Below, in pieces: positions 18,908 to 54,125 of a DNA stretch of 64,000 nucleotides (positions are counted from its first letter, which is position 1; every line of letters begins with the position of its first letter). Below the pieces are notes generated by a model. The model saw only the letters and a list, made by a program, of their open reading frames with translations. It made no database searches and was not told the DNA's origin. The translations under genes were made by a program, and so were the position numbers. Origin of the DNA: an uncultured Myxococcales bacterium (GTDB taxonomy: Bacteria > Myxococcota > Kuafuiibacteriia > Kuafuiibacteriales > Kuafuiibacteriaceae); assembly GCA_964473255.1 (NCBI GenBank), contig CAYYOT010000013.1, forward strand, positions 21,075 through 85,074. The letters run 5' to 3'.

Positions 18908-19837
18908 TCATGATACGACCCGCGAAAGCGGTCTCGGCGCGGATTCCGTCCAAGCCGGTTCGACATCGCGCGTGGCTCGGTCGAACGAGGCACAGTCGAG
19001 CTCGAGGCCCAGCCAAGTTCCGAGCCTGGCCAGATCGGGGTCGAACCGAGCCGCGAGGTGTGCGCGGTCCGCAGCAGACAGCACGGGTCGTTTCCGCATG
19101 GTGAAGAGCTGGCGAATCCTTGTCCGGACGGACTTGGGCACGAGAGTGCGACGAAGCGCCGTGGCGATGGGCCCCTCGGTGAGGAGGTCGAGGGCGCGAC
19201 TGCGGCGAATGCGCTCCGCCCCTTGGTTCTGGCGCTCGATCTCCTGCCAGACGGGCGCCTGCGTCGAACCCAAGAAGCGACAGACTCGCTCCAACTCGGC
19301 CTGCGGGTGGGCGGCGAGCTTCGCCGTGAAGATGGGCAATACTCGCTCCGGACCGAAGCGCTCGAGCCACGGCTCGAGCTGCATGGCATAGAAGCCATAG
19401 TCGACCAGCGGCGAGTGGGTCGAGATTGCCTCCCGAATCGAACCCCGAACGTCGCGCTCACTCCAAGCGTGAACGTAGTGCGACAGAAGCCGCTGGATGG
19501 GGTCGCGCATCACGTAGATGAGCCGAAGGTCGGTCCCGAGATGCGCCGTCAGCCGCTCGATGGTGTGGGGATGCGTCGGAAGCTTCGTGTAGTGCGTGGA
19601 CGACTCGCCGCGGAGTGCTCCCGGGGGTGCCGCCGCGAAGAGCTGGCGATACCATTCGATGCCCCGAGCGTAGATATCGTCGTCGCTGAAGAAGTTCGGC
19701 TCCTTGGGCTCGGACATGAAAAAGCCGGACTGCAAGGCGAGCTGCGTATGCAGCGTCGACGTCGCCGACTTCATCGCCCCGATGATGATGAAGTCGGGGC
19801 CGTGGGGTCGACCGCCATTTTTGTGGGGCTCGGTCAT
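18908..19837 (-). CDS. Sulfotransferase family protein
   Basis: 5'-PSB motif IIGAMKSATSTL, KEPNFF, GESSTHY, 3'-PB motif RDPIQRLLSHY. Confidence 0.92.
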   Translation of the reverse strand: MTEPHKNGGRPHGPDFIIIGAMKSATSTLHTQLALQSGFFMSEPKEPNFFSDDDIYARGIEWYRQLFAAAPPGALRGESSTHYTKLPTHPHTIERLTAHLGTDLRLIYVMRDPIQRLLSHYVHAWSERDVRGSIREAISTHSPLVDYGFYAMQLEPWLERFGPERVLPIFTAKLAAHPQAELERVCRFLGSTQAPVWQEIERQNQGAERIRRSRALDLLTEGPIATALRRTLVPKSVRTRIRQLFTMRKRPVLSAADRAHLAARFDPDLARLGTWLGLELDCASFDRATRDVEPAWTESAPRPLSRVVS

Positions 19838-23709: not shown

Positions 23710-24063
23710 ATGCACTACACGATTTCGACGACTTGGGGTCCCACGGACACGACGCGGGCCGCACTGCCTTTCATCTTTGCCGAAGCCGCCGCCGACTCCG
23801 GCGACACGGCGATGATCATGCTCTTTCACGACTCGATCCTTCTCGCGGTCAAAGGCACACACGAGCTGATCGTACCCGTCGGACCCAAGCCCAACTTCAA
23901 AACGGTGTTCGGCCATGACGCGATCGAAGTGATCGTTTGTAAGCCGTGCGCTGAAGCCCGCGGCATCACCGAAGACATGCTCGTCCCCGGCTGCCGCATG
24001 GGAGGCATGGGCGACTTCCTCACCCACGCCGCTCGCCCCGACAGCAAACAGGTCACCTTCTGA
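23710..24063 (+). CDS. DsrE/DsrF-like family protein
   Basis: 117 aa; GPTDTTRAALPF..MLFHDSI, VCKPCAEARGI..GGMGDF; GGAGG RBS. Confidence 0.8.
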   Translation: MHYTISTTWGPTDTTRAALPFIFAEAAADSGDTAMIMLFHDSILLAVKGTHELIVPVGPKPNFKTVFGHDAIEVIVCKPCAEARGITEDMLVPGCRMGGMGDFLTHAARPDSKQVTF

Positions 24064-27357: not shown

Positions 27358-30300
27358 CTACGAACCTGCCTCGGCAAGAGGACGCCTCGAACGATTCAAC
27401 ACGGCTTCCTCGGTCAGCGGACTCGAGGGGTGGTTGGAAAGGCAGTACGGTGTGGCGATTCGCTGCGGGGCCGACATGCCTTCCGAGTAGGCATAGAAGC
27501 ACCCCGCCTTCAGCCTGGCAACGTCGCTGCCATCGCCACCACGGTCGCGGATTTGCTGCTGTGCGGCAGCAATTGCTGCCGGTGAATTGACCTTGCCAAA
27601 GAGAAGCGTCTTCGCATTCGAGATGATGGTGTGGTCGATACTTCGCGGCTCCTGCGAGGCGAACACGAGGCCAAGTCCGTACTTGCGTGCCTGAGCGGCC
27701 AGACGTCGGAAGCTCTCTCGACAGGCCACGGCTTTGGCGGCTGGCACGAAGTCTTTCGCCTCATCAATCACCATAAGCCCCCGAATGGTCCCGTCCGGAG
27801 CTGGGTTCTTCTTGATCCAAACAAACAGAATTCGAGCCAACTGGTCGAGGAAGGTCCTCTGCCCTTCCAGATCAGGAATACCAATGAAGTTCAAGACGGA
27901 GATGCGCGTTCGATGCCTGCCGAGACCGAAGAGCACCGATGGGTCTAACGACGTCCCGTCCCCCTGGAGCAGCCGGTCCATCTGCATTCGAGCCCGGAGC
28001 TCGTCGGCAAGTTCACGAACCAGCTTACCGGCCCGATCATAGCCCTCGAGAACAGTCGACGGGGGATCCGTCAGCACCGCCAGCAGATCCCTCAGACTCG
28101 AGCTATCCGACTCTGCCAGCACGTCAAGAGCTCGGTCGATGAGCGCTGTCTTCGTCGTTACGCTACGTCCGGTCACTTGAAGCATCTCAACCAAGCTTCC
28201 GCGAGTAATCTCCTTTGCGATCGCATACTCGTCGGGGGCATCCCGAATGCTGGATAGGTCGGGGATCGGGTTTAATTGCAGCGAACGTCCTGCCTCTCTC
28301 CCCGGCGTGAATACGACAGCTTCCGTCTGATCGAAATAGCGTGCGGCCTTGCCGCGGTCGGCCTCCCGGAACCCGTTTGGCTCCGCTGGCCAAGGGTCCC
28401 CAAGGCAGGCCAGGTCATTCGCACCGTCGATGACGATCGAGGGTACGCCGGCTAGTGCCGACTCTTCGACCAAGCGTTTCAAAAAGACCGTTTTTCCCGA
28501 GCCGCTCCCAGCGAGGATCACCGTGTGATTTGTGAGCTGCCCGAGAGACACCGCAACCTCAGGACCCTTGCCGGCTCCCGAGTACGCCTCCCCCAGCGGG
28601 ATAGAAGTCTGCAGGCCCGGTTGGCGATGTTCGGGATGGGACTCGGCCTCAGATGCATGCAGAGGCCGCGTACCCTTGGGCGAGGATTCCGACGTTGCAG
28701 CCTCGGAACCGCCTGCCACCGATGGCGACGAAAAGAGCCAATCAGCGGAGGCCGACAACATGGCCATCGAGTGGATCGGCTTCTTGTCGCGAAGCCAGCT
28801 CTTCAACCCTGGCAGATCTTCAGTTGTCTTCCAGAGCTCGCCCAGAGCCCAGAGAGTCGCGAGATCCTCAGTGCCGGGGTTGAGGAGAATGCCGCCTCGC
28901 TTCCCGAACGTGTCCATTAATCGGGCGGTCACCGGCCCACTCGGAACGTCGGTCGTCCGGAACAGAATCAGGCGCCGAAAACCAAGGGCTCTGTCGATGC
29001 CGGACTCCGTCATGGCCGCCTTCAGCCTCGCCTGGAACGCGCTGGGGTGCTTGCTCTGGAGAAAGCGAAATCCAAGGCAGCGCTCTCTATCGCCCTTATC
29101 ATGGTGGACGATGCGAATGAGCGCATGCAGTGGGTCGTAGCTCTTGTTCGTTGTAAACGTCTTCGTAACCTCCGCGTCCTTGTCCGTCGGTAAAATCACT
29201 TCGACCGCAAGTGTGTCGCAAAGCGCTTCAATAAGAGCATCCTGAGCTTCCTCGGCGTTCGGTTCGAGGACTGGTCCAACTTCGAAACGAGCACGAGCCC
29301 GGTCGAACTGATCTGTGAAGGCGTCGCCCGTATTGGGGACTGGCACTGCGTCTGCGGCGCCCGACAAAGACTGAAGCTCCCGCACTTCGTGGCGAAGGAG
29401 ACATGCCTCGACATGCTCACCGCATCGCCGCAGGACCTCGCGAGGGTACAATCCCACCCCCTCTCTGAGCGCTTCCTCTTGGATAGGCCAGGTCGGATAC
29501 GGCGGCTCAAAGCCAACGGAGCGATACGCCGGAATGGTCCGTGCCTCCAGGAGGGACATCGCAATGGTGTGATCATCGAGGGGCCGAAGTGTCGTTGGTG
29601 CCTCGTATCGACCGGCGACAGGCGCGATCGACCTTTCCCTGAGCGTGCTCCACGTGCTTTCGAGGCAGGACACAACGAGCATCGTCCGCGGCATCAGGTC
29701 TCGGAGCGACATTAGTCCCCCTGCGATTCCTTCTACAATCGACAGTGACGCCTGCTGGCGCCCAAACGGATCTCCGAGTGTATCTTCCTGGCCGGACGCG
29801 AGCTGGTGCTCGCGTACGATGTTGTCCATCTGATCAAAAGAGAGGACCAGCGGTGCGCGCAACGACAGAAGCCAGCCTAAGCCTTTCACAACCTGAGGTG
29901 GCTCAGGATTCTGGTTCCTGAAGTCGTGATGAAACCCCGTCTGGTCGTTCACACCCAAGCTCTGAAGCCACGCGTAGCCGATGTTCATTAGCTCGAAATC
30001 CGTCGAGCCGAGAAGAACGAGCGCCCGAACGACGTCCTGATGCTCCAATGCTGCTGCCATGTCCCTCTTCGCCAGCTCTCCGATGATCGTGCGGATTCGA
30101 TTGTTGAGTCTGGGTGGGCGCAGCTCTCGGAGCTCGCTAACGGAGGACACGTTCAGAGAATCGCCACAGAGCTCGACGATACCCTCGAGCGTCTCCACGT
30201 ACTGAGGCTGACCAGTGCAGCCCGGCTTCATGATCGACTTGAACGCACCCAGTAAAACAGTGTCCCAAAAACTCGAGACGTTCGAGAGATCAACGGACAG

Positions 30301-30561
30301 GAACGAGCAGCCTCGGTCGAGCGCCTCACGACGCAATGAACCGAGAAGATGCGTCTTTCCCGAACCTGCGGTGCCGATGATGATCTGGCCAAGAGGTGCT
30401 TTGCTGTCAGACCGGCTGATGAGTGCGTCGAGCTTCCTGCTCAGGAGATTGCGCGCCTCCGACTGAATGTCCGGCACGTCCGGCAGTCGATCGTCCCAAA
30501 TGCTGTCGAGGTGAGTCGTCCAATTTAGGTCGACCGCCCTCAGCGCTGCTAGGTCATTCAC
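27358..30561 (-). CDS. Large double P-loop ATPase: N-terminal AAA-type NTPase plus C-terminal HerA/DUF87 domain
   Basis: GTAGSGKT / LSFDQMD in the N-terminal half; AGSGSGKT / VIDEAKDF / ARKYGLGLVFASQ in the C-terminal half. GTG start overlaps the upstream stop and follows AAGGAGG. Confidence 0.88.
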   Translation of the reverse strand: MNDLAALRAVDLNWTTHLDSIWDDRLPDVPDIQSEARNLLSRKLDALISRSDSKAPLGQIIIGTAGSGKTHLLGSLRREALDRGCSFLSVDLSNVSSFWDTVLLGAFKSIMKPGCTGQPQYVETLEGIVELCGDSLNVSSVSELRELRPPRLNNRIRTIIGELAKRDMAAALEHQDVVRALVLLGSTDFELMNIGYAWLQSLGVNDQTGFHHDFRNQNPEPPQVVKGLGWLLSLRAPLVLSFDQMDNIVREHQLASGQEDTLGDPFGRQQASLSIVEGIAGGLMSLRDLMPRTMLVVSCLESTWSTLRERSIAPVAGRYEAPTTLRPLDDHTIAMSLLEARTIPAYRSVGFEPPYPTWPIQEEALREGVGLYPREVLRRCGEHVEACLLRHEVRELQSLSGAADAVPVPNTGDAFTDQFDRARARFEVGPVLEPNAEEAQDALIEALCDTLAVEVILPTDKDAEVTKTFTTNKSYDPLHALIRIVHHDKGDRERCLGFRFLQSKHPSAFQARLKAAMTESGIDRALGFRRLILFRTTDVPSGPVTARLMDTFGKRGGILLNPGTEDLATLWALGELWKTTEDLPGLKSWLRDKKPIHSMAMLSASADWLFSSPSVAGGSEAATSESSPKGTRPLHASEAESHPEHRQPGLQTSIPLGEAYSGAGKGPEVAVSLGQLTNHTVILAGSGSGKTVFLKRLVEESALAGVPSIVIDGANDLACLGDPWPAEPNGFREADRGKAARYFDQTEAVVFTPGREAGRSLQLNPIPDLSSIRDAPDEYAIAKEITRGSLVEMLQVTGRSVTTKTALIDRALDVLAESDSSSLRDLLAVLTDPPSTVLEGYDRAGKLVRELADELRARMQMDRLLQGDGTSLDPSVLFGLGRHRTRISVLNFIGIPDLEGQRTFLDQLARILFVWIKKNPAPDGTIRGLMVIDEAKDFVPAAKAVACRESFRRLAAQARKYGLGLVFASQEPRSIDHTIISNAKTLLFGKVNSPAAIAAAQQQIRDRGGDGSDVARLKAGCFYAYSEGMSAPQRIATPYCLSNHPSSPLTEEAVLNRSRRPLAEAGS

Positions 30562-31199
30562 GGCGCCTCCTTCATGTAGATAATGTGACGCAGATGACCG
30601 GCCACCCTGATCGCGGCGCTCTCATCGGCTTCAGTGATGCTGAGTGGATCGTCCTTCTGCATCAGCACGAGCTTGTTCCCGCGCTGAAGCTCCAGCAGGG
30701 CCGCATCGAGCCGCTCGCGCGGCACATCAGCCATTCTGTCACGCAATGCAGAGAGGTCGACGCGGACATTCGCGTTACCCCCGCCGGCGTCACGATACGC
30801 CCGCCAGACTCGCTGAGGAATCTGCTCTGCGCCTAGGTCAGACGACTCGGCAATCGCGGCAAGCCCGAGGAACTCACCAAGTGGGATCCCTCGCTGATTA
30901 ATCGCTGATTTCAGGCGGGACAGGATGCGAGACGCTAGTGCGTAGGCCCTCGAGACCGATGTTCCGGGAGCCGCGAGGTCAGACCCGAGATTGTCGGCGA
31001 CCCAGGCCCATCCGCGGTCCGTGAGCACGACGAGTTGAGCCGTCTTGTGGTCAGGCCGCGGCTCAAAGGCGATATAGCCGCGTTGCCTCAAACGCGTGCG
31101 AGCCTTCTTGTCGACGTGTCCAAACTTCGTTGGACCTTCCGCAAACACTAGGCGGGTCAGTATTCGACGCTCTTCATGGCTCAATTGGTTTGCCATCAT
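30558..31199 (-). CDS. Uncharacterised protein with winged-helix-like domains
   Basis: LRQRGYI..VVLTDRGWAW (wHTH wing pattern) and VDLSALRDRMADVPRERLDAALLEL; ATGA and GTGA overlaps with both neighbours. Start moved to 31199. Confidence 0.75.
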   Translation of the reverse strand: MMANQLSHEERRILTRLVFAEGPTKFGHVDKKARTRLRQRGYIAFEPRPDHKTAQLVVLTDRGWAWVADNLGSDLAAPGTSVSRAYALASRILSRLKSAINQRGIPLGEFLGLAAIAESSDLGAEQIPQRVWRAYRDAGGGNANVRVDLSALRDRMADVPRERLDAALLELQRGNKLVLMQKDDPLSITEADESAAIRVAGHLRHIIYMKEAP

Positions 31200-32173
31200 C
31201 CTTCTCCTATCCCCTGTGCCCGTCGCGCCCTTACGACCTGCCGGATATCCTCGAGAACTACTCGTGGCTCGACCATTACTCGCGAGTGCATGACCCGAAG
31301 AACAATGTACCCCGACGCCATGAGCTGCTGGTCTCGTCTTCGGTCCGCCTCGTAGTCGGCTTGACGCAGGTGCTGCCAACCATCGACCTCCAGAGCCATC
31401 TTGCCCGCCATCCAAACCGCATCGACGATCGGCTCGGCCCCGGCCCTCGTCCGCACTCTCCGGTTGAAGGCGAACAGACCACGCAGCTCGGGATCCGTGC
31501 GAAACAAGGTGAAGAGCAGCTGCTCTCCCGGACTGAAATGATGCGGTTTACCTTCTTCGACTTCAGCTTCAAGCCGGCAACGTATGCCGCGATACGCGAA
31601 GCGCTGGATCTCCGGAGCCGCCCTGAAGGCCTCCGGGATAGCGACGATCAACCTCGTCTTGGATGCCTGGAGGAAGCCGTCGAGCTGAGAGAGGGCGCCC
31701 CCGATCATTTCAGGCATCGCCGACGAAGACGGCTGCCAGAACGCCATCGTGTGGTTCGTACCACCCAGGATCCGAAGGAGGTGGTCAGCCTCAACTTCTA
31801 GAGGTAGTCGGGTCACGCGCGGGGCGCGTGTGCGGGAGACCTTCCAGAGCGCCGCGTCCAACCAGCTCCGCGTAACGCCCGGCGTGGAAGACGAGATTGC
31901 CCGTGCGACCTCTGCCCTCGCCTTCGTAGGAAAGACGCTCCCTACTGCAGCTCTCGGCAGTCCGTTCCAGCGAGGCCAGACCCGCAGGGCATGTTCGGCC
32001 AGCGCAGCCGTGATCGAACCTCGAATGTGGTTAACGGTGGCGTCCGGCTGTACGGCAACGACCGAGAGTCCTTCACATCGGGATTTGAACTGCAGCCAAG
32101 GAACCGGATCGATGTGCGCATCCGTCCAAAGAACACGCACCTGGCCAGGCCCCACGTCCGCGAGTCGCTCCAA
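31196..32173 (-). CDS. DUF559/Vsr-like PD-(D/E)XK endonuclease-domain protein with uncharacterised N-terminus
   Basis: C-terminal IVDAVW..ALEVDGWQH..DRRRDQQLMASGYIVLR. Confidence 0.8.
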   Translation of the reverse strand: MERLADVGPGQVRVLWTDAHIDPVPWLQFKSRCEGLSVVAVQPDATVNHIRGSITAALAEHALRVWPRWNGLPRAAVGSVFPTKARAEVARAISSSTPGVTRSWLDAALWKVSRTRAPRVTRLPLEVEADHLLRILGGTNHTMAFWQPSSSAMPEMIGGALSQLDGFLQASKTRLIVAIPEAFRAAPEIQRFAYRGIRCRLEAEVEEGKPHHFSPGEQLLFTLFRTDPELRGLFAFNRRVRTRAGAEPIVDAVWMAGKMALEVDGWQHLRQADYEADRRRDQQLMASGYIVLRVMHSRVMVEPRVVLEDIRQVVRARRAQGIGEG

Positions 32174-32312
32174 TGCCCCAGCTCCGCAGCGTGTCTTAGC
32201 GAAGGTGAAGCCTGGATCCTACATTCACCTGACCCCGCCCGGTTGAGTTGCTCGATCCCTTCCGAAGGGCTACGCAGAAGCTGCGTCACCGACGTTCTGT
32301 AGCCACACATCA

Positions 32313-32330
32313 GAGGGGCTCCTGTGCACC
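32313..32330 (+). repeat. Short direct repeat, copy 2 (GAGGGGCTCCTGTGCACC)
   Basis: Matches 27019-27034; the two copies bracket the three-gene ATPase/nuclease operon. Confidence 0.45.
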
Positions 32331-32383
32331 GAGAGCAAGGTGGTTCCGGCAAGTCCTCCCTAGGACACCGAAGCTAAACGAAG

Positions 32384-32596
32384 ATGGGCGAGAGTCGACT
32401 CGATGGCACCATTGGGCTCGTCACCATCTCCGGCGGCGGCGTCTTCCTCGAAGTGAACGTCGCCGACGCCGGCCTCACCAACGAGCCGTTCGCCCCACCA
32501 CCCGTTCCCAGCGCGGCGACCGGGACGATGTTCATGCTCCTGCTAGCTCTGGTGCTGACCGGACTCCTCGCGACCCGACGCAGACTCGTCGGCTGA
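32384..32596 (+). CDS. Small ORF or gene remnant ending in an IPTL/PEP-CTERM-like sorting signal
   Basis: ..PPPVPSAATGTMFMLLLALVLTGLLATRRR: VP motif, hydrophobic helix and basic tail. Confidence 0.45.
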   Translation: MGESRLDGTIGLVTISGGGVFLEVNVADAGLTNEPFAPPPVPSAATGTMFMLLLALVLTGLLATRRRLVG

Positions 32597-32858
32597 ACAC
32601 GTCGCAGAGCGCCCTAGGGGCTCCTCTTCTCTCAATTCGCGCACGGACTCGGCCCCGCTTGCCTGGTCACTCACGCCACCCGCCCCGACAGCAAACAGAG
32701 CTCCTTGTAGTTCGGGAGCGCTCTTCGGTCGCCCCTCACCCTTCGCAGGCGCCAAAGGTCTCGCAGTCGCGAGTCGAGGAGCTGCGAAGGGTTCAGCGGT
32801 CAGATTTATTCCAGCCTTTGTACTGGACACTTTCTATCCACCCCGGCACCTCGCACCG

Positions 32859-33656
32859 GTGTCGCGGACGAAATCCGAAACTCGGCGGCTCCAGCCTTTC
32901 GGCGTCGAGGTTCTCGGCTTCGAGGTTCTCGGAGGGGTACCGGGGCCCGAGGACCGGCGCCGATTGCGGCACCTTCTGGCGACCCATGGCGTGGTCGTCC
33001 TTCGCGAGCTCCATCTCGAGGACCCGGACTTTGCCGCGCTGCTCGGCGCGCTCGGCCGACTCGTCTTCACCGAGGGCGAGCGACCCGTCCCCGGTCGAGT
33101 CGACCTGAATATCGTAACGAACCAAGGACGGACACGCCCACCCCGCAGTGTCTTTCACACCGACACGAGCTACGTGCGGCGACCGCCCGCTTTCACGGCG
33201 CTTCGGCCGGTCGCGCTGCCCGAGCAAGGCGGCGAGACCGTCTTCTCGGACCAGGTCGCCGCCTACGCTGCCTTGCCCTCAGTCGTGCGCCATCGGCTGA
33301 GGACGGCCCGCGTGGAGCACCGGGTCACGGGACTCCGGGCCACAGATCTATCGGAGACCAAGAGCGTTCACCCACTGTTTCGCCGGCATCCGATGACCCA
33401 CGACATCGCGCTCTATCTGTCGACGCCCGAGCGCTGTCGCTGGGCCTCCGACGAGCCGGAGACCCGGCTCGAGACGCTGTACGAACACTCCATCCACCCA
33501 GAGCGGACATATCGGCACGCGTGGAAGCCGGGCGACGTCCTGATCTGGGACAACCGTCGAACGATGCACCGAGCCGACCACTCCAATGTGGTCGGGATCC
33601 GCGCCTTTCACCGTGGGCTCGTCGCTGGCGAGGAGCCAATCCCGGCGTTTGTCTGA
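32859..33656 (+). CDS. TauD/TfdA family Fe(II)/2-oxoglutarate dioxygenase
   Basis: FHTDTSY (HxD), GGETVFSD, HPLFRRHP, WKPGDVLIWDNRRTMHRA. Confidence 0.9.
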   Translation: MSRTKSETRRLQPFGVEVLGFEVLGGVPGPEDRRRLRHLLATHGVVVLRELHLEDPDFAALLGALGRLVFTEGERPVPGRVDLNIVTNQGRTRPPRSVFHTDTSYVRRPPAFTALRPVALPEQGGETVFSDQVAAYAALPSVVRHRLRTARVEHRVTGLRATDLSETKSVHPLFRRHPMTHDIALYLSTPERCRWASDEPETRLETLYEHSIHPERTYRHAWKPGDVLIWDNRRTMHRADHSNVVGIRAFHRGLVAGEEPIPAFV

Positions 33657-33678
33657 AGCGCCAAATCAAAGGAAAATC

Positions 33679-35415
33679 ATGTCAGTACTCTGCTTCATCG
33701 AACGCTTCGCCACGGCCTGGCAGGCACGTTCCACCACGATCACCTCATTGGACGGGTTTCTCACCGCGATGGCCGAGGATCCGGACTTCGAAGCGTTCGC
33801 GACCCGCCTCAACGAAACGGATTGGTACGACGCCGAGGTCAGTCGCGCTGCCGAGCAGCTCGACGCTACCGAGATTCTCTTCGTCCTCCGCCAGCTTACC
33901 GGCGGAGCGAGGCAGCCGCTTCAACGCTTTCTGTTTCTGACCGGCGAGCTGCTGACGAACTTCAATGAAGACTTTGGCGAGCGCTGGCTGGCCTGGGCGG
34001 AGGCAGCCGCGAGAGACGAGCGCGGTTCGCAGCCGCTGTATCAATGGGTCGAAAGCCTCCGCTACGACCCTCTGGAGGGCGACGACCACGCTCGTTTTCC
34101 GACATCCGGTTTTCGGCGGAGCAGCGGGACGGTCGTGAGCAACGAGGATGACCGCGTCATCGATGCCGTCTCGACCCTCCAGGTTTCTTCGTCCGTCCAG
34201 GTGTCGGACAAGACTCTGTCTTTGAGCAACCCGACCTTGGCACGCGTCTACGGTCCAGCGGGACGCTGTCTCGCGGTCGTCGACCGTAACGTCGAAAAGT
34301 TCTACGGCCCCCAGCTCGACGCCTACTTTCGCCATCATCGAATCCTGCTCGAAAAGCGAGTCGTCCGTGCCATGGAAGTCGACAAGGATATCGGCAACGT
34401 CGAAGCGCTCCTCGCCGAATTCAAGCAGTTCGGAGTCGCGCGCCACGAGCCGGTGTTGGTCGTGGGCGGGGGCGTCCTCGCCGACGTCGCGGGCCTCGCG
34501 TGCGCGCTCTACCATCGCGGAACCCCCTACGTAATGCTCTCGACCTCCATCGTTTCGGGAATCGACGCAGGGCCTTCCCCGCGAACCTGCTGCGACGGCT
34601 TCGGGTACAAGAACCTCTTCGGCGCCTATCACCCGCCGGCTCTGAGCCTGATGGACCGCAGCTTCTTTTCGACGCTTCGTCCTGGGTGGCTCCGCCACGG
34701 TATCGCGGAGATCGTGAAGATGGCGGTCGTCAAAGACGCAACGCTGTTCGCTGACCTCGAGGCGGCAGGCCCGGCGCTCGTGGCGACTCGCTTTGGAACC
34801 CGTACCGTCGACGCCGGCAGCCGCATCGACGGATTGAGCCAGGCGATCTTGGGCGCTGCCCTGCGGTCGTACGTTGAAGCCGAGTACGGAAATCTCTTCG
34901 AAACCCACCAGTGTCGGCCCCACGCCTACGGCCACACCTGGTCGCCGGGCTTCGAGCTCAGCGCGGGCTTGCTTCACGGCCACGCCGTCTCGATCGGAAT
35001 GGGCTTCGGCGCCTACCTGAGTCATCAACGCGGGTGGCTTCCACGGGCCGACTTGATGCGGATCCTCAACCTCATCTCCCGGCTCGACCTGAGTCTGTGG
35101 AACGATGCGGTGGACGAGCCAGAACTCTGGTGGCAGGCGCAAAACAAGATCATCCAGAAGCGCGGCGGACACCTCGCCGCTCCTGTCCCCCGGGGCCGCG
35201 TCGGCGCGTGCGGATACATCGAAGAGCTCTCGCGAGACGAACTCATCCAAACGCTGACCGACTACCGCGACCTTTGCCACACCTTCCCTCGAGCTGGCGT
35301 TGGCCTCGAGCCTTTCTGCGTCGATGTTGGACTGGAAGATCCCGCATCCACGGTCCCGACGCAGCAGTCGCCGACCGAGCCGTCTCACGCCGACCGTCAA
35401 GGGGTCATCTCGTGA
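33679..35415 (+). CDS. mysA: Sedoheptulose 7-phosphate cyclase (demethyl-4-deoxygadusol synthase type) with about 150-aa N-terminal extension
   Basis: VGGGVLADVAG, YHRGTPYVMLSTS, KNLFGAYHPP, AYGHTWSP, LLHGHAV; adjacent to mysB/mysC homologues. ATG 33679 follows AAAGGA. Confidence 0.9.
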   Translation: MSVLCFIERFATAWQARSTTITSLDGFLTAMAEDPDFEAFATRLNETDWYDAEVSRAAEQLDATEILFVLRQLTGGARQPLQRFLFLTGELLTNFNEDFGERWLAWAEAAARDERGSQPLYQWVESLRYDPLEGDDHARFPTSGFRRSSGTVVSNEDDRVIDAVSTLQVSSSVQVSDKTLSLSNPTLARVYGPAGRCLAVVDRNVEKFYGPQLDAYFRHHRILLEKRVVRAMEVDKDIGNVEALLAEFKQFGVARHEPVLVVGGGVLADVAGLACALYHRGTPYVMLSTSIVSGIDAGPSPRTCCDGFGYKNLFGAYHPPALSLMDRSFFSTLRPGWLRHGIAEIVKMAVVKDATLFADLEAAGPALVATRFGTRTVDAGSRIDGLSQAILGAALRSYVEAEYGNLFETHQCRPHAYGHTWSPGFELSAGLLHGHAVSIGMGFGAYLSHQRGWLPRADLMRILNLISRLDLSLWNDAVDEPELWWQAQNKIIQKRGGHLAAPVPRGRVGACGYIEELSRDELIQTLTDYRDLCHTFPRAGVGLEPFCVDVGLEDPASTVPTQQSPTEPSHADRQGVIS

Positions 35416-36230
35416 CGTCGTCCCTGCGACCGGTGACACCAAACACGATCCTGGCTGCGCGCCTTCACGAAGCGCTCGCGTGGGCTCGAACGCACGACGT
35501 GGCCGCGTCTCTGGTCGAGCATCTCGAGGCCTGCACCGCCCTGGCCGCTCCCCTCGAGCCTTACCTCGAGCGCCAGGCCAGTCCCGAGTCACCAGGCCGC
35601 GCCCAGCTCGCCGCGGACAGTCGGAGCGAGCCCTGGAAGAGACGCTTTGAGACATCGGCGTCGAGCCTACCCTTGGAGGCGGAGATGCTGAGCGGGCGCG
35701 TCGAAGGGCAGCTGCTGCGGATGCTGGTGCAGATCTCGGGCGCTCGGCGCGTGCTGGATATCGGCCTGTTCACCGGCTACTCCGCCCTGACCATGGCCGA
35801 AGCACTACCCCACGACGGCTTGGTCACCGCCCTGGAAATCGACTCCTTCGTTGCCGACTTCGCGAAAACGCACCTGTCCTCGATGCCGGGCGGCGAAAAG
35901 ATCGAGGTTCGGTTGGGGCCGGCGCTCGAAACTCTGCTGGCGCTGTCGGGTGAGGGTCGAGGCTTCGACCTCGTCTTTATCGATGCGGCAAAGACCGACT
36001 ACCCAGCCTACTATCGGGCTCTCTTCGAGCTCGAGCTCCTGCACGAGCGAGCACTGGTCGTCGCCGACAACACACTATATCAGGGGGAAGTCTACGCTTC
36101 GGGTGGCCCTGGCTCATCTTCGGGCGTCGCCGTTGCCGAGTTCAATGAGCTGGTCCGCAAAGACCCGCGAGTCGAACAAGTCCTGCTACCCGTTCGCGAC
36201 GGACTCACCCTGGCGAGGCGCGTAGCATGA
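35412..36230 (+). CDS. mysB: MAA O-methyltransferase
   Basis: RPVTP N-terminus, PLEAEMLSGRVEGQLL, VLDIGLFTGYSAL, FDLVFIDAAK, DNTLYQG; closely resembles cyanobacterial Ava_3857-type OMT. GTG overlaps the mysA stop. Confidence 0.9.
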   Translation: MTSSLRPVTPNTILAARLHEALAWARTHDVAASLVEHLEACTALAAPLEPYLERQASPESPGRAQLAADSRSEPWKRRFETSASSLPLEAEMLSGRVEGQLLRMLVQISGARRVLDIGLFTGYSALTMAEALPHDGLVTALEIDSFVADFAKTHLSSMPGGEKIEVRLGPALETLLALSGEGRGFDLVFIDAAKTDYPAYYRALFELELLHERALVVADNTLYQGEVYASGGPGSSSGVAVAEFNELVRKDPRVEQVLLPVRDGLTLARRVA

Positions 36231-37672
36231 ACGATTGCGGGGCCAACCTCCGTCTGGTCGATGCCTCGGAAACATCGCCGGCGCCGAGCGGAGCAGAAGG
36301 CCGCTCCGAGGTTCAAGCAAGGGCCCTCGCGGAAGGGCTTTCGGCGTTGCCGCCGGTCGCCAGGACTTGGCTGACCCTGGCCACCCTCGGTGCCGCCCTG
36401 CCCTTAACGTCGGTCGCGACGCTCGCTGGTCTCGCAGCCGCACGCCCCCGTTCGAAGCGACGGTCGCGCTTCGCGAAGAAGGCCCGAGCCACCGGCATGA
36501 CTGTTCTGCTCACCGGTGGGAAGATGACGAAGGCGCTTCACCTGGCCCGCGCGTTCTCCGCCGCGGGCCATCGAGTGCTGCTGACCGAGTCCGTGAGCTA
36601 TCCGGTCGTCAGTCATCGATACTCGCGGGCGGTCGACCGATTCTTCGTCGTCCCCGATGTTCGCCGGGAGCCCATCGCTTATCGGACCGCGCTGGCCGAC
36701 ATCATCGAACGCGAGGGCGTGGACGTCTTTGTTCCGGTGGCCAGTCCGGCGTCAGCTCGGATCGAGGCCAGTCTCGCCGCTCATGAGGTAGAAGGGTGTC
36801 GAGTCTTTCAGGCCTCGCCCAGTCTCACGGAGCGCCTCGACGACAAGGTACAGTTCTGTCGACTGGCCGAAGACCTCGGACTCAGTGCGCCAACCGTCAT
36901 CCCGGTAGAATCGCCGGAAGCCGTCCTCGACTTCGACTTTCGGAGCTACCCGCACCCCTTCATTCTTAAGAGTGTGCGCTATGACCCCGTCCATCGACTC
37001 CAGCAACTACGGCTGCCAAGCCCCGGAGTCGAACACCATGTGCGGCGCCTTCCGATCCGCTCCGACAATCCCTGGGTTCTTCAAGAGTTTCTCGTCGGGG
37101 ACGAATACTGCACGCACAGCGTCGTCCACGAAGGCCGCATTGTCGCTCACGTGTGCTGTGCTTCGTCGGATTTTCAGGTCAACTATCGCTCGGTCGACCA
37201 TCCGAGGATCGAGGCCTGGGTGCAGCACTTCGTCGCCGCACTGAACCTCACCGGCCAGGTCTCCTTCGACTTCATCGAATCACCGGATGGCGAGGTCAAG
37301 CCGGTCGAGTGCAACCCCCGAACTCACAGCGCAGTCACGGCGTTCGACGAGCCGGAGGCTCTTGCCCGAGCCTACCTCGGCCCGAAGGACGGTGAGACGC
37401 TCCGGCCTCGACAAGACGCAAAGCCCACGTACTGGCTCGCCCATGAGGTCTTCCGACTCGGACGCGCAAAAAGCTGGGCTGAGGCGCGAGCCCGGATGGC
37501 GGTCATGCTCGGCGGACGCGACGCGGTCTTCGATGCAACCGACCCTCTCCCCTTTTTGGTCCTGCATCACGGCCAGATACCTTGGCTACTCCTGGAGAAC
37601 TTGCTGCGGGGCCGTGACTGGCACCGTATCGACTTCAACATCGGCAAGCTGGTCGAAGCGGAAGGAGACTGA
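36227..37672 (+). CDS. mysC: ATP-grasp mycosporine-glycine synthetase
   Basis: TVLLTGGKMTKALHLARAF, HRYSRAVDRF, LDDKVQF, FILKSVRYD, ECNPRTHSA, C-terminal RIDFNIGKLVE..GD. Confidence 0.92.
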   Translation: MNDCGANLRLVDASETSPAPSGAEGRSEVQARALAEGLSALPPVARTWLTLATLGAALPLTSVATLAGLAAARPRSKRRSRFAKKARATGMTVLLTGGKMTKALHLARAFSAAGHRVLLTESVSYPVVSHRYSRAVDRFFVVPDVRREPIAYRTALADIIEREGVDVFVPVASPASARIEASLAAHEVEGCRVFQASPSLTERLDDKVQFCRLAEDLGLSAPTVIPVESPEAVLDFDFRSYPHPFILKSVRYDPVHRLQQLRLPSPGVEHHVRRLPIRSDNPWVLQEFLVGDEYCTHSVVHEGRIVAHVCCASSDFQVNYRSVDHPRIEAWVQHFVAALNLTGQVSFDFIESPDGEVKPVECNPRTHSAVTAFDEPEALARAYLGPKDGETLRPRQDAKPTYWLAHEVFRLGRAKSWAEARARMAVMLGGRDAVFDATDPLPFLVLHHGQIPWLLLENLLRGRDWHRIDFNIGKLVEAEGD

Positions 37673-37674
37673 CC

Positions 37675-38700
37675 GTGACGCGGCTGCGCGTAATCCATCT
37701 CGTCGGGTCGCCAACCTCGACGTTCTTCTTCGAGCTTTCACGCCTCTACGCGACCGACGTCGTTCAGCCCGTGGACACCGTGTCCCAGTTCGTTCAGGTC
37801 GACCCTCGAGGGCGGTGGTCCGTCGGGCCCTCCCTGAACGAGCTCGAGGCGGTTGGGGGTGTACGTGACATGCTGGCGACCGTGCGTCCCGCCGACATCG
37901 TGGTTCCGCATACTCTCTGCGAAAGAGGTCTCACCGGCCTGCGGGCCTTCTTTTCGGACGTGCTCCAGCTTCCGCTCGTGGGCTCGAGCCCTCGCGTGCA
38001 CGAGGTTGCTCTTGACAAGCGCTGGACGCGAGCGACGGCGACCGCGGTGGGCGTAACCATCGCGCCTGGAGAGGTGCTGTTCGAAGAGCGGGAGCCGTCC
38101 TTGCCGCTTCCCTACGTGGTCAAGCCGGTACGGGCCGATAACTCCGACGGGCTCAGCTTAGTCCGATCGATCGTAGAGATCCCGGGAGCTCTTCATCGCG
38201 CCCTCGGTTTCGGATGCGCGGCGTTGGTCGAAGCCTTCGTTCCGGGGCGAGAGATCCGCGTCGGCGTGCTGCAGACGTCTGCCGGCTGTCGCGTCCTCCC
38301 CATGATCGAGTATTCGCTTTCCGAGACACTTCCCATCCGAGTGCGCGAGGACAAACTCGATGCGTCCGCTGGTCGACTGCGACCGAGTCGACATAGCGAA
38401 TCCGCGGTGATTCCTGCTCTTCTCGCACCAGGTCTTCGAGCGAGGCTCGAAGATGCCGCTCTACGCATGCATCGGGGCCTCGAGGCTCGTGATTTTTCCC
38501 TGTACGACTTTCGCTGTCCAGGCGATGACGAGGAGCCCATCCTGCTGGAAGCAGGTCTCTACTGGTCATTCGGGCCAGCGAGCATGATCTCGAGAATGCT
38601 TCGCAGCGAGGGTGCATCCCTGCCCACCATCGCTGGGGAGGTCTGGCGACAGGCGGCTGCTCGGCACCCGCTGAAAGCTGAAAGGATGGACGCTGCCTGA
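37675..38700 (+). CDS. mysD: D-Ala-D-Ala ligase-like MAA aminotransfer enzyme
   Basis: VIHLVGSPTSTFFFELSRLYA (MysD-type N-terminus), VVKPVRADNSDG, PGREIRVGV, SLYDFR, LEAGLYWSFGPAS. Confidence 0.88.
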   Translation: MTRLRVIHLVGSPTSTFFFELSRLYATDVVQPVDTVSQFVQVDPRGRWSVGPSLNELEAVGGVRDMLATVRPADIVVPHTLCERGLTGLRAFFSDVLQLPLVGSSPRVHEVALDKRWTRATATAVGVTIAPGEVLFEEREPSLPLPYVVKPVRADNSDGLSLVRSIVEIPGALHRALGFGCAALVEAFVPGREIRVGVLQTSAGCRVLPMIEYSLSETLPIRVREDKLDASAGRLRPSRHSESAVIPALLAPGLRARLEDAALRMHRGLEARDFSLYDFRCPGDDEEPILLEAGLYWSFGPASMISRMLRSEGASLPTIAGEVWRQAAARHPLKAERMDAA

Positions 38701-39443
38701 TGATGAAGGCGATGCTCTTCGGTTCGATCGGAACCGTCATCGAAACCTCGGAGCTGCAGCGACAAGCCTACAACCAGGCTTTTCGGGATTGTGGAATCGG
38801 ATGGGAGTGGTCCACCGACGAGTACCGCGCTCTCCTGCGAATACCCGGTGGACGAAATCGGCTCCGCGCGTACGCCCAAAGGAAGGCGCGAGCAACTCCC
38901 ATGAACGGGATGCTGGACGAGGTGCATCGGCGGAAGTCCGAGCTGTTCCGGCAGGCGTTGGCCTCTTCCGAGCTCGAGCTGCGGTCGGGCGTGGCTCGAC
39001 TGCTGGCCGAAGCTCGAGCCGCCGACGTTCGGACTGGCTGGGTGAGCACGACCGAGCGCGAAACAATTCAAACGATCGCGTCGCGGTTTCCCGATATTCT
39101 CGATGGATTTTGGGTGCAGACCGATCGGACGACGGTCGCGCGGGAAAAGCCACATCCCGACGCGTACCAGGCGGCGCTGTCCGCACTCGACGTTTCGCCC
39201 GCCCAAGCGGTGGCCATCGAAGATACCGCGGAGAGCCTAGCGTCCGCCGTTCGGGCCGGCGTTGCCACCGCAGTCACGCCCGGCGCGTTCACCATGACCC
39301 ACGACTTTGACAGGGCGGCTGGCGTGGTGTCCCGACTCGGAACCCCGGAAGAGCCTGCCGAAGTGATAAGCGGTCCATCGCCGATGAATCCACCGTGGGT
39401 TACGCTCTCGTGGCTCGACGGTCTTCGCTCCAGCGGTTGGTGA
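38700..39443 (+). CDS. HAD-superfamily (CbbY-like) protein lacking the motif-I Asp nucleophile
   Basis: LFGSIGTVIETSELQRQAYN in place of DxDGT; KPHPDAY and VAIEDT motifs retained; 1-nt overlap with mysD. Confidence 0.85.
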   Translation: MMKAMLFGSIGTVIETSELQRQAYNQAFRDCGIGWEWSTDEYRALLRIPGGRNRLRAYAQRKARATPMNGMLDEVHRRKSELFRQALASSELELRSGVARLLAEARAADVRTGWVSTTERETIQTIASRFPDILDGFWVQTDRTTVAREKPHPDAYQAALSALDVSPAQAVAIEDTAESLASAVRAGVATAVTPGAFTMTHDFDRAAGVVSRLGTPEEPAEVISGPSPMNPPWVTLSWLDGLRSSGW

Positions 39444-41564: not shown

Positions 41565-44002
41565 ATGAACTCGAACACGGCAACTCCGACGTCCCGATGC
41601 ATCTCGGCGATCCTGGCTCTGCTAGGCAGCCTGGGCTGCAGTGCCCCGGCAAACCAGCCGACGTCGCCAACGGAGCCGCCCTCCGATCAAGCCGTGGCGG
41701 CGCCTTCCGCGCTTGCATCCGGACCCGACCGAACGGTGTTGCCGCTGGCCGAGCCCGAGCCGCCGCTTTACGATGAAGTCGACGTCCGAAAAGCCGAGCC
41801 CCCGCCCCGCTTCGAAGTCAAAGCTCCCAAGGACGCTCCAAACGTGGTGTTGGTCTTGGTGGATGACTTGGGCTTCGCCGGCACGTCCGCCTTCGGCGGC
41901 CCCGTGTCTACGCCCACCTCGCGAGCCAAGGTGTCCGGTACAACAATTTTCACACCACGGCCGTGTGCTCACCCACCCGCGCGGCCCTGAAGACCGGCCG
42001 CAACCACCACGTAAACAACATGGGGTCCATCATCGAGACCGGCACTGCATTCCCCGGAAACACGGGCCAGATCCCGAACGCGGTCGCTCCGCTGGCGGAG
42101 GTCCTGCGGCTGAACGGCTACAGCACCGCTGCTTTCGGCAAGTGGCACGAGCTCGCAGCGTGGGAGGCGAGCATCGCGGGTCCTTATGACCGATGGCCGC
42201 TCCACCGCGGCTTCGACAAGTTCTACGGCTTTCTCGGCGGCGAAACCAATCAATGGGCGCCGTTCGTCTACGACGGCGTGCATCCGGTCGAGCTACCCGA
42301 CGACGATCCCGACTATCACTTCCTGACCGACATGACGGACCAGGCCGTCGCCTGGATCCGCTTTCAGCAGGCCCTGACGCCCGACAAGCCGTTCTTCGTT
42401 TACTACGCTCCTGGAGCAACGCACGCACCGCACCACGTTCCCCAGTCGTACATCGACCGATGGAAAGGGAAGTTCGACATGGGCTGGGACCGGCTTCGCG
42501 AAGAGACCCTCGCCCGGCAAATCGAAAACGGAACCGTTCCCGCAGGCACCAGGCTCGCTCCCAAGCCTCAGGCCGTCCCCGCGTGGGCGGACCTCTCCGC
42601 GGAAGAGAAACGCCTCTTCGCCCGTCAGGCCGAAGTCTTTGCCGCCTACGTCGAGATGACGGACTACGAGATCGGCCGGGTGGTGGAGGCCGTCGAGGCA
42701 GTCGGAGAGCTCGACAATACGCTGCTTCTTCTCCTCTACGGCGACAACGGCACGAGCGCCGAAGGCGGCCGGAACGGAATGTTCAGCGAAATGACCTACT
42801 TCAACGCCGTGGAAGAAAAAGTCTCGGACATGCTGAAACATCTCGATTCATGGGGCGGTCCCGAGACCTACCCGCACATGGCCGCCGGCTGGGCCGTCGC
42901 TTTCGACACACCGTACACGTGGACAAAACAGGTGGCCTCCGACCACGGCGGCACCAAAGTCGGCATGGCGGTTCACTGGCCCAAGGGCATCCGGACGAAG
43001 GGCGAGCTGCGGACGCAGTTTCATCATGTCATCGACGTGGCCCCGACCATCTTGGAGGCGGCGGGCCTCCCCGAGCCGACGATGGTCAACGGCGTTGCTC
43101 AGCGACCCATGGACGGGGTGAGCATGGTGTACTCCTTCGACGATGCCACCGCCGAGGACCGTCACACTACTCAGTACTTCGAGATGTTCGGCAACCGCGC
43201 GATGTATCACGAAGGCTGGTTCGCCCGGACCATCCACAAGGCTCCCTGGGAGCCGAAGCCCCGTAGGCCCTTGGCGGAAGACGACTGGGAGCTCTTCGAT
43301 ACGCGAAAGGACTTCAGCCTGACGAACGATCTCGCCGCCGAAAACCCACAAAAGCTTGCCGAGCTGAAAAAGATGTTTCTTGCCGAAGCCAAGAAGAACC
43401 ATGTGCTGCCCATCGACGATCGCGTCTTCGAGCGCCTCATCCCCGAGGCGGTGGGGCGGCCCGACCTCATGGCGGGGCGCACATCCATGACTCTCGCCGA
43501 AGGCATGAACGGTATGACCGAAAACGTCTTTATCGACGTGAAGAACAAGTCGAAGACGATCACCGCCGAAGTCGAAGTGCCGAAGGGGGGCGCGAACGGC
43601 ATCATCTTGGCGCAGGGCGGACGTTTCGGCGGTTGGGCGCTCTACGTGAAGGACGGCGTTCCGGCCTACGACTATAACTTTCTCGGGCTAGAGCGCTACA
43701 CGGTCTCGGCTTCCAAACGTCTGCCGATCGGGCAGTCCACGATTCGTTTCGAGTTCGCCTACGAGGGCGGCGGGCGCGGCAAAGGCGGGACGGCCACGCT
43801 TTATGTCGACGATGAAAAGGTCGGCGAGGGCCGGATCGAGCGCACGCAGCCCACCATCTTTTCAGCCGACGAAACGGCCGACGTCGGTATCGACCTCGCC
43901 ACCCCGGTCGTGGAGACGATCGGCTCCGAAGCCGAATCTCGCTTCACCGGCGGAATCCCGAAGGTGACCATCGAGATCAAGACTCCACCCACCGGGAGCT
44001 GA
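41565..44002 (+). pseudogene. Arylsulfatase lipoprotein, frameshifted at about 41917
   Basis: Frame 1: lipobox [25 protein letters not shown]. The other frame continues [33 protein letters not shown]. About 10 nt appear to be missing at the junction. Confidence 0.85.
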
Positions 44003-45960: not shown

Positions 45961-46028
45961 CAGACGTGCGACGTGCACCGAGGACCACGCGTAGAGGCGG
46001 GGTCTCGGCCAACGACCTGGAGTCGAAT

Positions 46029-46102
46029 CGCACCCGGAAGGAGTCGAACCTGCGACCTCCGGATTCGTAGTCCGGCGCTCTATCCAGCTGAGCTACGGGT
46101 GC
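46029..46102 (-). tRNA. tRNA-Arg(ACG)
   Basis: GCACCCG acceptor stem, TAGCTCAGCTGGATAGAGC D-arm, CCGGA-CTACGAA-TCCGG anticodon arm, GGTTCGACTCC; one C-U mismatch in the T stem. Confidence 0.94.
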
Positions 46103-46137
46103 GTGGAGCGGTGGGAAAAATCATGGGGTGGCGGGCC

Positions 46138-46850: not shown

Positions 46851-47576
46851 CTACATCGTCTTCTGTGCCTGCTGGGACTTGGCGGCGAGGCGCTTGGCCT
46901 TCAGCTCCTCGAGCTTCTTGCGGGCGGTGACTTCGCCGGTCTGCACGCGGAGCTTTTCGAGCCGGCCTTCGAGGCTCTGACCTTTGAGCTCGGCGTTGAG
47001 CTTAGCCTGGGCGGACAACCCCTCGATGTGCTCGCGAACGTTGTCGAGCGCCTTCACCTCGGCGTCCACCGACAGACCGTCGAGCTGCTCCTGAACCTGA
47101 ATGCGGGCCTCGGCGCTCTTCATCTTGGCCAGCATCTGGTCCTTTTCCGCCTTCAGCTTCGAGATCTCGCCGGCCACGCTGAGCAGGGAGGACTTGGCGT
47201 CGTCGGCGTCGTGCCGTGCCTGGTCGAGGTCGACCTCGAGGTCGGCGATCTGAGACTCGAGCGCGCCCTGCCGGTTGATCAGGATGAGCGCCAGGTCGTC
47301 CTGGTTGGTCTCGACCGCCGTCTCCAGATCGCCGACGGTCTGAGCGAGCTCCTTCTGAGCCTTTTCCAGGCGGCCCTCGAGTTCTTCGCGACGGCGGATG
47401 ATCATCGCCGTCGCCTTCTTGAGCGCGTGGTGTTTCTCGATCAGCGAGTTAATCGAGTTCTCGTATGCGATCTCGGGGTGGCGCTTTTCGATGTCGCCCA
47501 CCCACAGGGACCAAAAGCCGCCCCAGAGATTACCCAGCCGCGAAAAGAAACCGCCTTGCGCCACGAGTCCGGCCAT
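46851..47576 (-). CDS. PspA/IM30 family protein
   Basis: FFSRLGNLWGG..IEKRHPEIAYE, long coiled coil, AKMKSAEARIQVQEQL, LEELK C-terminus. Start moved to 47576. Confidence 0.85.
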   Translation of the reverse strand: MAGLVAQGGFFSRLGNLWGGFWSLWVGDIEKRHPEIAYENSINSLIEKHHALKKATAMIIRRREELEGRLEKAQKELAQTVGDLETAVETNQDDLALILINRQGALESQIADLEVDLDQARHDADDAKSSLLSVAGEISKLKAEKDQMLAKMKSAEARIQVQEQLDGLSVDAEVKALDNVREHIEGLSAQAKLNAELKGQSLEGRLEKLRVQTGEVTARKKLEELKAKRLAAKSQQAQKTM

Positions 47577-47742
47577 AAGCACGGTCGGCAGGTAGGTCAA
47601 GGTGGAGACAACAAGCCGACGTTCACCACATGGCGAACACCCGGCGGACCTTTCACTGCGCGCCGCATACGAAGGACCACGGGACGCTCGATCGACATGA
47701 ACTTCGGTCGCTGTTACGTTCCCCGAGCCGCGCGGCCACGCC

Positions 47743-51558: not shown

Positions 51559-51585
51559 CGGAGCAACGACTCCGGGACACGCGCC

Positions 51586-53058: not shown

Positions 53059-53109
53059 GAGCGCCAATCTAGCAAATGGAACGGGGAGTTTCGGAGGGGT
53101 TTTTCTGAG

Positions 53110-53138
53110 TTGCCTAACGGCTCGGCATTCCCTAGAAC
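53110..53138 (+). promoter_or_regulatory. Candidate sigma70-type promoter of tRNA-Thr
   Basis: TTGCCT-N17-TAGAAC ending 11 nt before the tRNA. Confidence 0.5.
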
Positions 53139-53149
53139 CCCGGTTCCGC

Positions 53150-53222
<73 letters not shown>

Positions 53223-53242
53223 AACCGGGGTCACCAGTCTCG

Positions 53243-54064: not shown

Positions 54065-54125
54065 CTCCGCGCAGACTTTGGCTAAGGGTCACCCAACCGA
54101 CATCCGCACGGTCTATCGCAATGCC

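Follow-up and report, generated by a model that had tools for sequence, protein, structure and literature searches.

Gene content of the locus

We analyzed a 64,000-nucleotide stretch of DNA (contig CAYYOT010000013.1 of assembly GCA_964473255.1, positions 21,075 to 85,074 of the forward strand; hereafter the window) from an uncultured Myxococcales bacterium. We focused on positions 32859-39443, where six co-oriented open reading frames (ORFs) on the + strand, all of them intact, encode a candidate biosynthetic pathway leading to mycosporine-like amino acids (MAAs). The features of the locus are as follows.

32859-33656, + strand: TauD, a TauD/TfdA-family Fe(II)/2-oxoglutarate oxygenase (PF02668, E 1.4e-42)
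33679-35415, + strand: MysA, a sedoheptulose-7-phosphate cyclase (long form) that belongs to the desmethyl-4-deoxygadusol synthase (DDGS) type, with DHQ_synthase N- and C-terminal domains
35412-36230, + strand: MysB, an O-methyltransferase (PF01596 Methyltransf_3, E 2e-52)
36227-37672, + strand: MysC, an ATP-grasp ligase (NCBIfam NF005315/PRK06849; 409 bits, the cut-off being 406)
37675-38700, + strand: MysD, a D-Ala-D-Ala-ligase-like protein (PF07478 Dala_Dala_lig_C)
38700-39443, + strand: HAD, a HAD-like protein related to CbbY (HAD Pfam families; Protein Data Bank (PDB) match CbbY)
32174-32858, + strand: upstream non-coding DNA, the presumed promoter region, between a divergent DUF559 gene (ending at 32173) and TauD

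The genes follow one another in the order TauD-MysA-MysB-MysC-MysD-HAD. The junctions measure +22, -4 (GTGA), -4 (ATGA), +2 and -1 (TGATG) nucleotides, and the 4-nucleotide overlap of MysA with MysB provides the adjacency that a mysA-B-C-D-type MAA cluster requires. There are no premature stops or frameshifts across the 6.6-kb cluster, and at all but one of the five junctions the genes overlap or are tightly spaced. A first-pass annotation of this DNA, made from the sequence without database searches, had described six coupled genes, and its coordinates, gaps and overlaps were reproduced exactly from the ORFs and junction sequences. The start codons that it chose for TauD and HAD are backed by homologue alignments that begin at residue 1-2; an automatic gene caller shortened these two proteins to 230 and 180 amino acids. 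Across the six proteins, 83-100% of the positions that are near-invariant among homologues are kept, catalytic motifs included. Six functionally linked genes in such an operon-like chain cannot be a chance assembly.

A DDGS-type MysA lies beside MysB, a PRK06849-type MysC lies beside MysB on its other side, and MysD is present. The earlier claim of a complete mysA-B-C-D cluster was borne out by the Pfam and NCBIfam assignments, the PDB matches and the phylogeny. From these data and those presented below, we consider it likely that the locus is a functional MAA operon, carried on the chromosome of an uncultured Myxococcota lineage of class rank, that would follow a palythine-type route and would have been gained horizontally long ago.

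Host genome and genomic context

The contig had been taken as Myxococcota-like, and this was upheld by three lines of evidence. LysS, encoded at the start of the window, has its best matches in metagenome-assembled genomes (MAGs) of Myxococcota (58-76% identity), and its named matches are MAGs of Myxococcota or 'Deltaproteobacteria'. The window genes at 15193-18814 and those at 46851-63727 have homologues in a genome of the same genus (G003), where the two sets share one contig and are separated by about 11 kb. The window holds a 28-kb variable region between these two conserved blocks, with the mys cluster inside it and a tRNA-Arg (46028-46103) at its right edge. The composition of the cluster is typical of the genome: it ranks at the 20th percentile for GC content (0.644), at the median for tetranucleotide distance and at the 11th-51st percentile for GC content at third codon positions (GC3). 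A Myxococcota host is therefore well supported by LysS, by the synteny of the flanks and by composition.

The host genome (5.04 Mb) is fragmented into 158 contigs and the nearest homologues of the cluster proteins come from other phyla, as would be expected if the contig were an assembly chimera or had been mis-binned from a co-sampled cyanobacterium, actinobacterium or proteobacterium. However, both flanks are collinear with a single contig of the same-genus genome, LysS is Myxococcota-like, and the GC, GC3 and tetranucleotide values are genome-typical and unlike those of the cyanobacterial loci, which have 39-56% GC. Identity to public sequences of at most 64% also leaves no candidate source organism. 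Chimerism is very unlikely, with only the slimmest chance left to it.

MysA belongs to a long-form clade

The best PDB match of MysA is the Anabaena DDGS 5TPR (258 bits), ahead of ValA, an EEVS (synthase of 2-epi-5-epi-valiolone; 4P53, 204 bits), and of dehydroquinate synthases (86 bits or less). At the position of ValA Asp281, which we take to discriminate DDGS enzymes, MysA has Ala416 inside an exact AYGHTWSP motif, as expected of a DDGS. Discrimination at this position is said to go back to Kean 2014 and Osborn 2017.

The mys-linked MysAs fall into three clades, and the window MysA is placed in the long-form clade III (Shimodaira-Hasegawa approximate likelihood-ratio test (SH-aLRT) 99). The other members are from a Halothece MAG, an alphaproteobacterial MAG, a 4.8-Mb genome and two further bacteria. 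In every member of clade III about 175-190 residues precede the enzyme core; this stretch is about 30 residues long in one of the remaining clades and about 70 in the other. In the window MysA, a helical N-terminal extension of about 125 amino acids makes up part of the roughly 175 that stand ahead of the catalytic core. AlphaFold (AF2) predicts the first ~125 residues as a confident helical domain (predicted local distance difference test, pLDDT, 86). This domain matched no Pfam family, and a Foldseek search against the PDB returned nothing better than E 1.8 and a template modelling (TM) score of 0.3. Residues 1-125 (33679-34055) share 20-26% identity between the window and the cyanobacterial long forms, and the catalytic part shares 51-64% across long-form homologues. 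The N-terminal domain occurs in all clade III members and, by these values, evolves much faster than the enzyme core.

A separate observation concerns locus L001 (5250-13291), in a 4.8-Mb genome, which has a long-form MysA followed by MysB, MysC and a Methyltransf_2 gene. A phytochrome-type histidine kinase is encoded beside this array, and a bacteriorhodopsin gene is located about 2 kb away.

MysB, MysC and MysD

We compared the remaining core enzymes with a set of about 80 mys loci found by scanning 185,579 species genomes. MysB, MysC and MysD share 28-56% identity with their counterparts in 80 loci, and 83-88% of their near-invariant positions are conserved along with the recognisable catalytic motifs. 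MysB is 44-55% identical to the MysB of 72 mys loci; it keeps 83% of the near-invariant residues, and its IDxxK and DN motifs for metal binding and catalysis are preserved. MysC is 43-56% identical to the MysC of 81 loci. MysD falls under all cut-offs for housekeeping D-Ala-D-Ala ligases (Ddl), with 66.6 bits against a threshold of 243.

In the MysD tree, the window protein belongs to a set of nine sequences (SH-aLRT 100), which it shares with the MysD of Halothece, those of four further named cyanobacteria and three sequences without a phylum label. Its omega loop is unlike that of the characterised Ser/Thr-specific MysDs. We placed the relevant residue pair of this loop with Crocosphaera and Cyanothece as anchors, and rejected the Ser/Thr rule (Leu/Phe-Ala/Ser, PMC11983340) for the window protein: the loop is too different, as it is in the Halothece-type clade. 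Since the rule does not transfer, the second amino acid is not predictable. The MysD and MysA types are those of the mycosporine-2-glycine producer group around Halothece and Aphanothece. The Halothece locus (L036) has a long-form clade III MysA with an N-terminal extension (53% identity to that of the window), and a MysD of the same subclade (42%). Mycosporine-2-glycine is reported to be the sole product of Aphanothece halophytica (genes Ap3858-Ap3855; PMC6521297). Unlike the window, Aphanothece and Halothece are cyanobacteria with 44% GC, have no TauD or HAD in the cluster and carry MysA apart, on the opposite strand.

A TauD-type oxygenase paired with a HAD-like protein that lacks the catalytic aspartates

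Alignment of the window TauD to E. coli TauD (1GQW) revealed that it keeps the HxD motif in FHTDTSY, a distal His in MHRADH and the Arg in FHRG. These align with His99/Asp101, His255 and the Arg of the C-terminal H-R pair of 1GQW. The protein thus has the HxD...H iron triad and the 2-oxoglutarate-binding Arg of TauD/TfdA enzymes. Its nearest homologues (50-60% identity) belong to cyanobacterial, actinobacterial and alphaproteobacterial mys clusters. PF02668 is its only Pfam match and it has none to the PhyH family, whereas MysH belongs to the phytanoyl-CoA dioxygenase family (PMC11378024, PMC11888242). At most, the window TauD would be a functional analogue of MysH and not a homologue.

The best structural relative of the HAD protein is CbbY (4UAR/4UAT; Rhodobacter sphaeroides, Arabidopsis), to which it aligns end to end. 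The top PDB match, the CbbY xylulose-1,5-bisphosphate phosphatase 4UAR (E 9e-37), covers residues 1-206. Unlike CbbY, the window protein is encoded in an MAA cluster and not in a Calvin-cycle operon, and its motif I reads FGSIGT where CbbY has FDVDGT. Both catalytic aspartates of the DxD signature are gone. We searched exhaustively for homologues among 1.84 billion representative sequences and examined the top 149. The motif III Lys and the motif IV Glu-Asp typical of the CbbY fold are kept in the window protein and in 148 of these 149 nearest representatives, and 86 of them have Gly at the nucleophile position. The loss of both motif I aspartates occurs in every TauD-linked HAD homologue, in four phyla. 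This pattern is that of a maintained nucleophile-less HAD subfamily and not of a local defect in the window. Because both motif I aspartates are replaced, a phospho-aspartyl mechanism is impossible, and the protein is not an ordinary phosphatase. Most likely it would serve TauD as a partner, in a non-catalytic or non-canonical capacity.

The first-pass annotation had named no role for TauD and HAD in the pathway. The two are no mere bystanders of the core genes but form a conserved accessory pair in Actinomycetota, Pseudomonadota and Bacillota, where the GATOR-GC study (PMC11888242) reported it from MAA clusters. The loss of the HAD nucleophile is not mentioned in PMC11888242. In our comparison, TauD and HAD occur together at all nine of the nine loci that are not cut by a contig end. 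The six-gene set of the window recurs in different orders in alphaproteobacterial MAGs (L041, L044) and in Actinomycetota (L049, L103, L111). The order is B-C-D-A-HAD-TauD in the two alphaproteobacterial MAGs, HAD-A-B-TauD-C-D in Ornithinimicrobium and an Actinomycetales MAG, and HAD-A-B-C-D-TauD in Mycobacterium (L111), a near mirror image of the order in the window.

The actinobacterial clusters, which include the Pseudonocardia alni window of the GATOR-GC study (PMC11888242), the Rhodococcus fascians D188 operon and L049, L103 and L111, have the same six families and a HAD that lacks the DxD nucleophile in the same manner. They differ in gene order and host phylum, and their MysA is a short clade I form (36-40% identity) whereas that of the window is a long clade III form. 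The window TauD and HAD also fall outside the well-supported actinobacterial clades. The alphaproteobacterial L041 and L044 (MysB-C-D-MysA(long)-HAD-TauD) are the only other loci found with a long MysA (58-60% identity), MysB-D, the HAD-TauD pair and high GC. They differ from the window in gene order, identities range from 35 to 60%, and the reading frames of L041 are split. In the latter (10357-14647), tblastn splits MysD, MysA and TauD each into a pair of neighbouring pieces that lie in different frames, which is due either to long-read indel errors or to decay of a six-gene copy.

The pair is also present beside mys core genes in some cyanobacteria, in contrast to the statement in PMC11888242 that cyanobacterial MAA clusters lack HAD and TauD. 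We detected HAD-TauD-MysB-MysC-MysD in Oscillatoria sp. CS-180 (L034) and HAD-TauD-MysB-MysD in an Elainellaceae MAG (L033). In addition, a Leptolyngbyaceae MAG (L050) has a HAD-TauD pair about 2 kb downstream of its MysB-MysC-MysD array. None of these three loci contains a MysA gene, and the long-form MysA of Oscillatoria sp. CS-180 is on another contig. Such split clusters were probably missed in PMC11888242 because its search required a nearby MysA. An EamA transporter gene lies upstream in both L033 and L034, and sulfotransferase genes adjoin the clusters of both (L033 1-872; L034 8811-9617). In the window, the variable region contains a sulfotransferase gene (18908-19837) 13 kb upstream of the operon and a sulfatase gene (41963-44002) 2.5 kb downstream of it. 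Sulfated palythines occur in corals, and any link between these genes and sulfated palythines is pure speculation.

A palythine-type route is the proposed outcome

In the pathway that we propose, MysA would convert sedoheptulose 7-phosphate to desmethyl-4-deoxygadusol, MysB would methylate this product to 4-deoxygadusol, and MysC would join 4-deoxygadusol with glycine to give mycosporine-glycine. MysD would then add the second amino acid to mycosporine-glycine. Members of the TauD/TfdA family typically introduce a hydroxyl at a carbon that adjoins a heteroatom, and the group so modified is then lost. TfdA performs this chemistry on aryl-O-CH2-COOH substrates, and the same has been proposed for the unrelated MysH. 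By analogy, the window TauD would probably hydroxylate the alpha-carbon of an N-carboxymethyl (glycyl) substituent, and glyoxylate would leave to yield a palythine-type imine.

The closest chemical precedent is found in the mysABCD plus mysH clusters of Nostoc linckia NIES-25 and Nostoc sp. UHCC 0302, which likewise combine the core pathway with one Fe(II)/2-oxoglutarate oxygenase. In these clusters the oxygenase strips the glycine-derived carboxymethyl group to give palythines (PMC10666671, PMC11378024). Most likely the window cluster would work in the same way, although the Nostoc clusters use a MysH of the phytanoyl-CoA dioxygenase family and have no HAD partner. An unpublished Rhodococcus fascians operon with HAD and TauD genes, as cited in PMC11888242, gave shinorine, palythine and palythine-serine. 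Because the accessory TauD-HAD pair is tied to palythine through this citation in PMC11888242, a palythine-type product is likely. The first-pass annotation had predicted a compound of the shinorine or porphyra-334 type; the core MysA-D pathway behind that prediction stands, and the end product of the cluster is probably palythine-type, not just one of these compounds.

We also put forward, tentatively and as less than an even prospect, that TauD and the nucleophile-less CbbY-like protein form an obligate two-protein module that converts disubstituted MAAs to palythine independently of MysH. The pseudo-phosphatase would then serve as a substrate-binding, scaffolding or activating subunit. If true, this would give a new role to a pseudo-HAD protein and would account for the joint occurrence of the two genes in at least four phyla.

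Weighing the evidence for a functional palythine-type operon

Several observations weigh against a functional palythine-type operon, and we discuss them together with the alternatives that they favor. First, MysA has Lys494 at the position of ValA His360, where the Anabaena DDGS has Thr. Lys occupies this position in 38 of the 62 mys-linked MysAs (clades II and III), so we regard it as a clade feature and not as a defect.

Second, the TauD-HAD pair may have a broader role than MAA tailoring. A Pseudomonadota MAG (L035, 9001-10463) encodes a TauD-HAD pair of the same subfamilies, nucleophile-less HAD included, and there are no mys genes within 9 kb of it. The link from TauD to palythine comes from a conference abstract, cited second-hand through PMC11888242, and no biochemical study of this TauD clade came up in our search of the published literature. 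The HAD protein moreover has no obvious role in MAA chemistry. The product of the core enzymes could accordingly be an ordinary disubstituted MAA, for instance mycosporine-2-glycine or shinorine, with TauD and HAD merely travelling along for an unrelated purpose such as scavenging a sulfonate or a phosphonate-like compound. We consider this unlikely. The pair lies inside or abuts mys genes in four phyla and in several gene orders, which argues for selection on the linkage. The two genes are also translationally coupled at both ends of the operon, and palythine production from a pair-containing operon is cited in PMC11888242.

Third, the terminal branches leading to the window proteins are very long for MysB (3.1), MysC (1.83) and MysD (2.45), compared with medians of 0.085, 0.079 and 0.15, respectively. 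Retention of near-invariant residues in MysC is 88%, the lowest when set against all 81 homologues. Together, the long branches and the low MysC retention may possibly indicate altered specificity or partial decay. Non-conservative changes affect MysC (Y358K, Y405A, G479E) and MysB (D193A), and a search of 5.8 billion proteins returned no close relative of the cluster proteins. The operon could thus be an evolutionary relic whose frames are intact but drifting, with at least one enzyme inactive or re-specialised and no canonical MAA made. This seems quite improbable given the uninterrupted frames and tight junctions described above, the recognisable catalytic motifs of all six proteins and the retention of 95-100% of the near-invariant sites by MysA, TauD and HAD. 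The branch lengths may largely reflect a shift to the proteome of a 65% GC genome, as a composition test flagged the window together with other high-GC sequences. We therefore retain a functional operon with a palythine-type route as the likely reading.

Rarity and origin of the cluster

MysC is present in only one of the 20 genomes of the class; it is absent from the 19 others, including four of the same genus. No other mys cluster was found in the 400 genomes sampled from the phylum. Fifteen PRK06849-like ATP-grasp genes (L018-L032; 15 of the 400 Myxococcota) were considered as candidates and rejected, as they have no MysA, MysB or MysD nearby. These genes are 26-36% identical to MysC and belong mostly to one family with 8-11 Mb genomes. 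In the search of 5.8 billion proteins, no cluster protein exceeded 64% identity to public sequences, and all are on long branches.

The absence of the cluster from relatives makes horizontal acquisition the best reading, as had been suggested at first. The native-like composition and the long branches indicate that the transfer would be old and that the donor is not identifiable. In the gene trees, MysA and MysD are in cyanobacteria-dominated clades that also hold unlabelled or alphaproteobacterial sequences. Both were placed with high support. MysC groups with Actinomycetota in the free tree, and Alphaproteobacteria fit at least as well under constraint: joining the window with L041 and L044 gave a likelihood above that of the free tree. 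An actinobacterial origin of TauD and HAD is excluded by their gene trees. The gene trees, of the kind that the first-pass annotation had proposed as a check, name no donor. An unsampled lineage would be the best reading of the source, and an old horizontal gain that of the event.

We found no integrase or transposase Pfam match among the ORFs scanned at 18.9-46.8 kb, and no repeated fragment of the tRNA-Arg within the window. The divergent three-gene operon next to the cluster (27358-32173, - strand; DUF559, a protein of unassigned family and AAA-HerA) has a GC content of 0.606 (0.1st percentile) and a tetranucleotide distance at the 99.8th percentile. Unlike the adjoining MAA cluster, this operon looks recently acquired. 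The first-pass annotation had proposed that the habitat may be light-exposed or osmotically stressed; the genome does encode two photolyase-family genes, but so do those of all its genus relatives.

The upstream region and a 40-nucleotide repeat

The region at 32174-32858 is presumed to be the promoter region of the operon. We found no credible ORF in it and no match to the sigma-70 consensus; the sigma-70 and terminator scans were at background level. A search of 23.5-40 kb against Rfam at E ≤ 1 also returned no match. A 40-nucleotide direct repeat occurs at 24020-24059 and 32667-32706. The copies are 85% identical, share the exact 18-nucleotide core CGCCCCGACAGCAAACAG and are the only two in the 5.04-Mb genome. 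Each copy lies 90-150 nucleotides upstream of a + strand gene, which is a vanadium-haloperoxidase-like gene in one case and the first gene of the MAA operon in the other. The element was not found upstream of the haloperoxidase homologues in two genomes of the same genus. Possible explanations are an operator common to the two genes and a scar left by an 8.6-kb insertion.

Implications

Six bacterial phyla are already known to carry MAA clusters, which makes the present one less surprising than the first-pass annotation supposed when it gave MAAs as described mainly in cyanobacteria, a few actinobacteria, algae and fungi. Every component family of the window cluster has been seen before in MAA clusters, and what is new is the phylum. 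In keeping with the initial statement that no characterised myxobacterial MAA producer was known, our literature search found no paper linking MAAs to Myxococcota. The cluster would extend MAA biosynthesis to this mostly heterotrophic and often predatory phylum, in a lineage known only from metagenomes. It is the most divergent complete MAA cluster that we found (at most 64% identity) and could yield new substrate preferences for sunscreen engineering. The loss of the HAD catalytic aspartates wherever the protein is linked to TauD makes the role of the pair concretely testable, and the compact six-gene operon provides a test bed for both the widespread TauD and pseudo-HAD pair and the long-form MysA.

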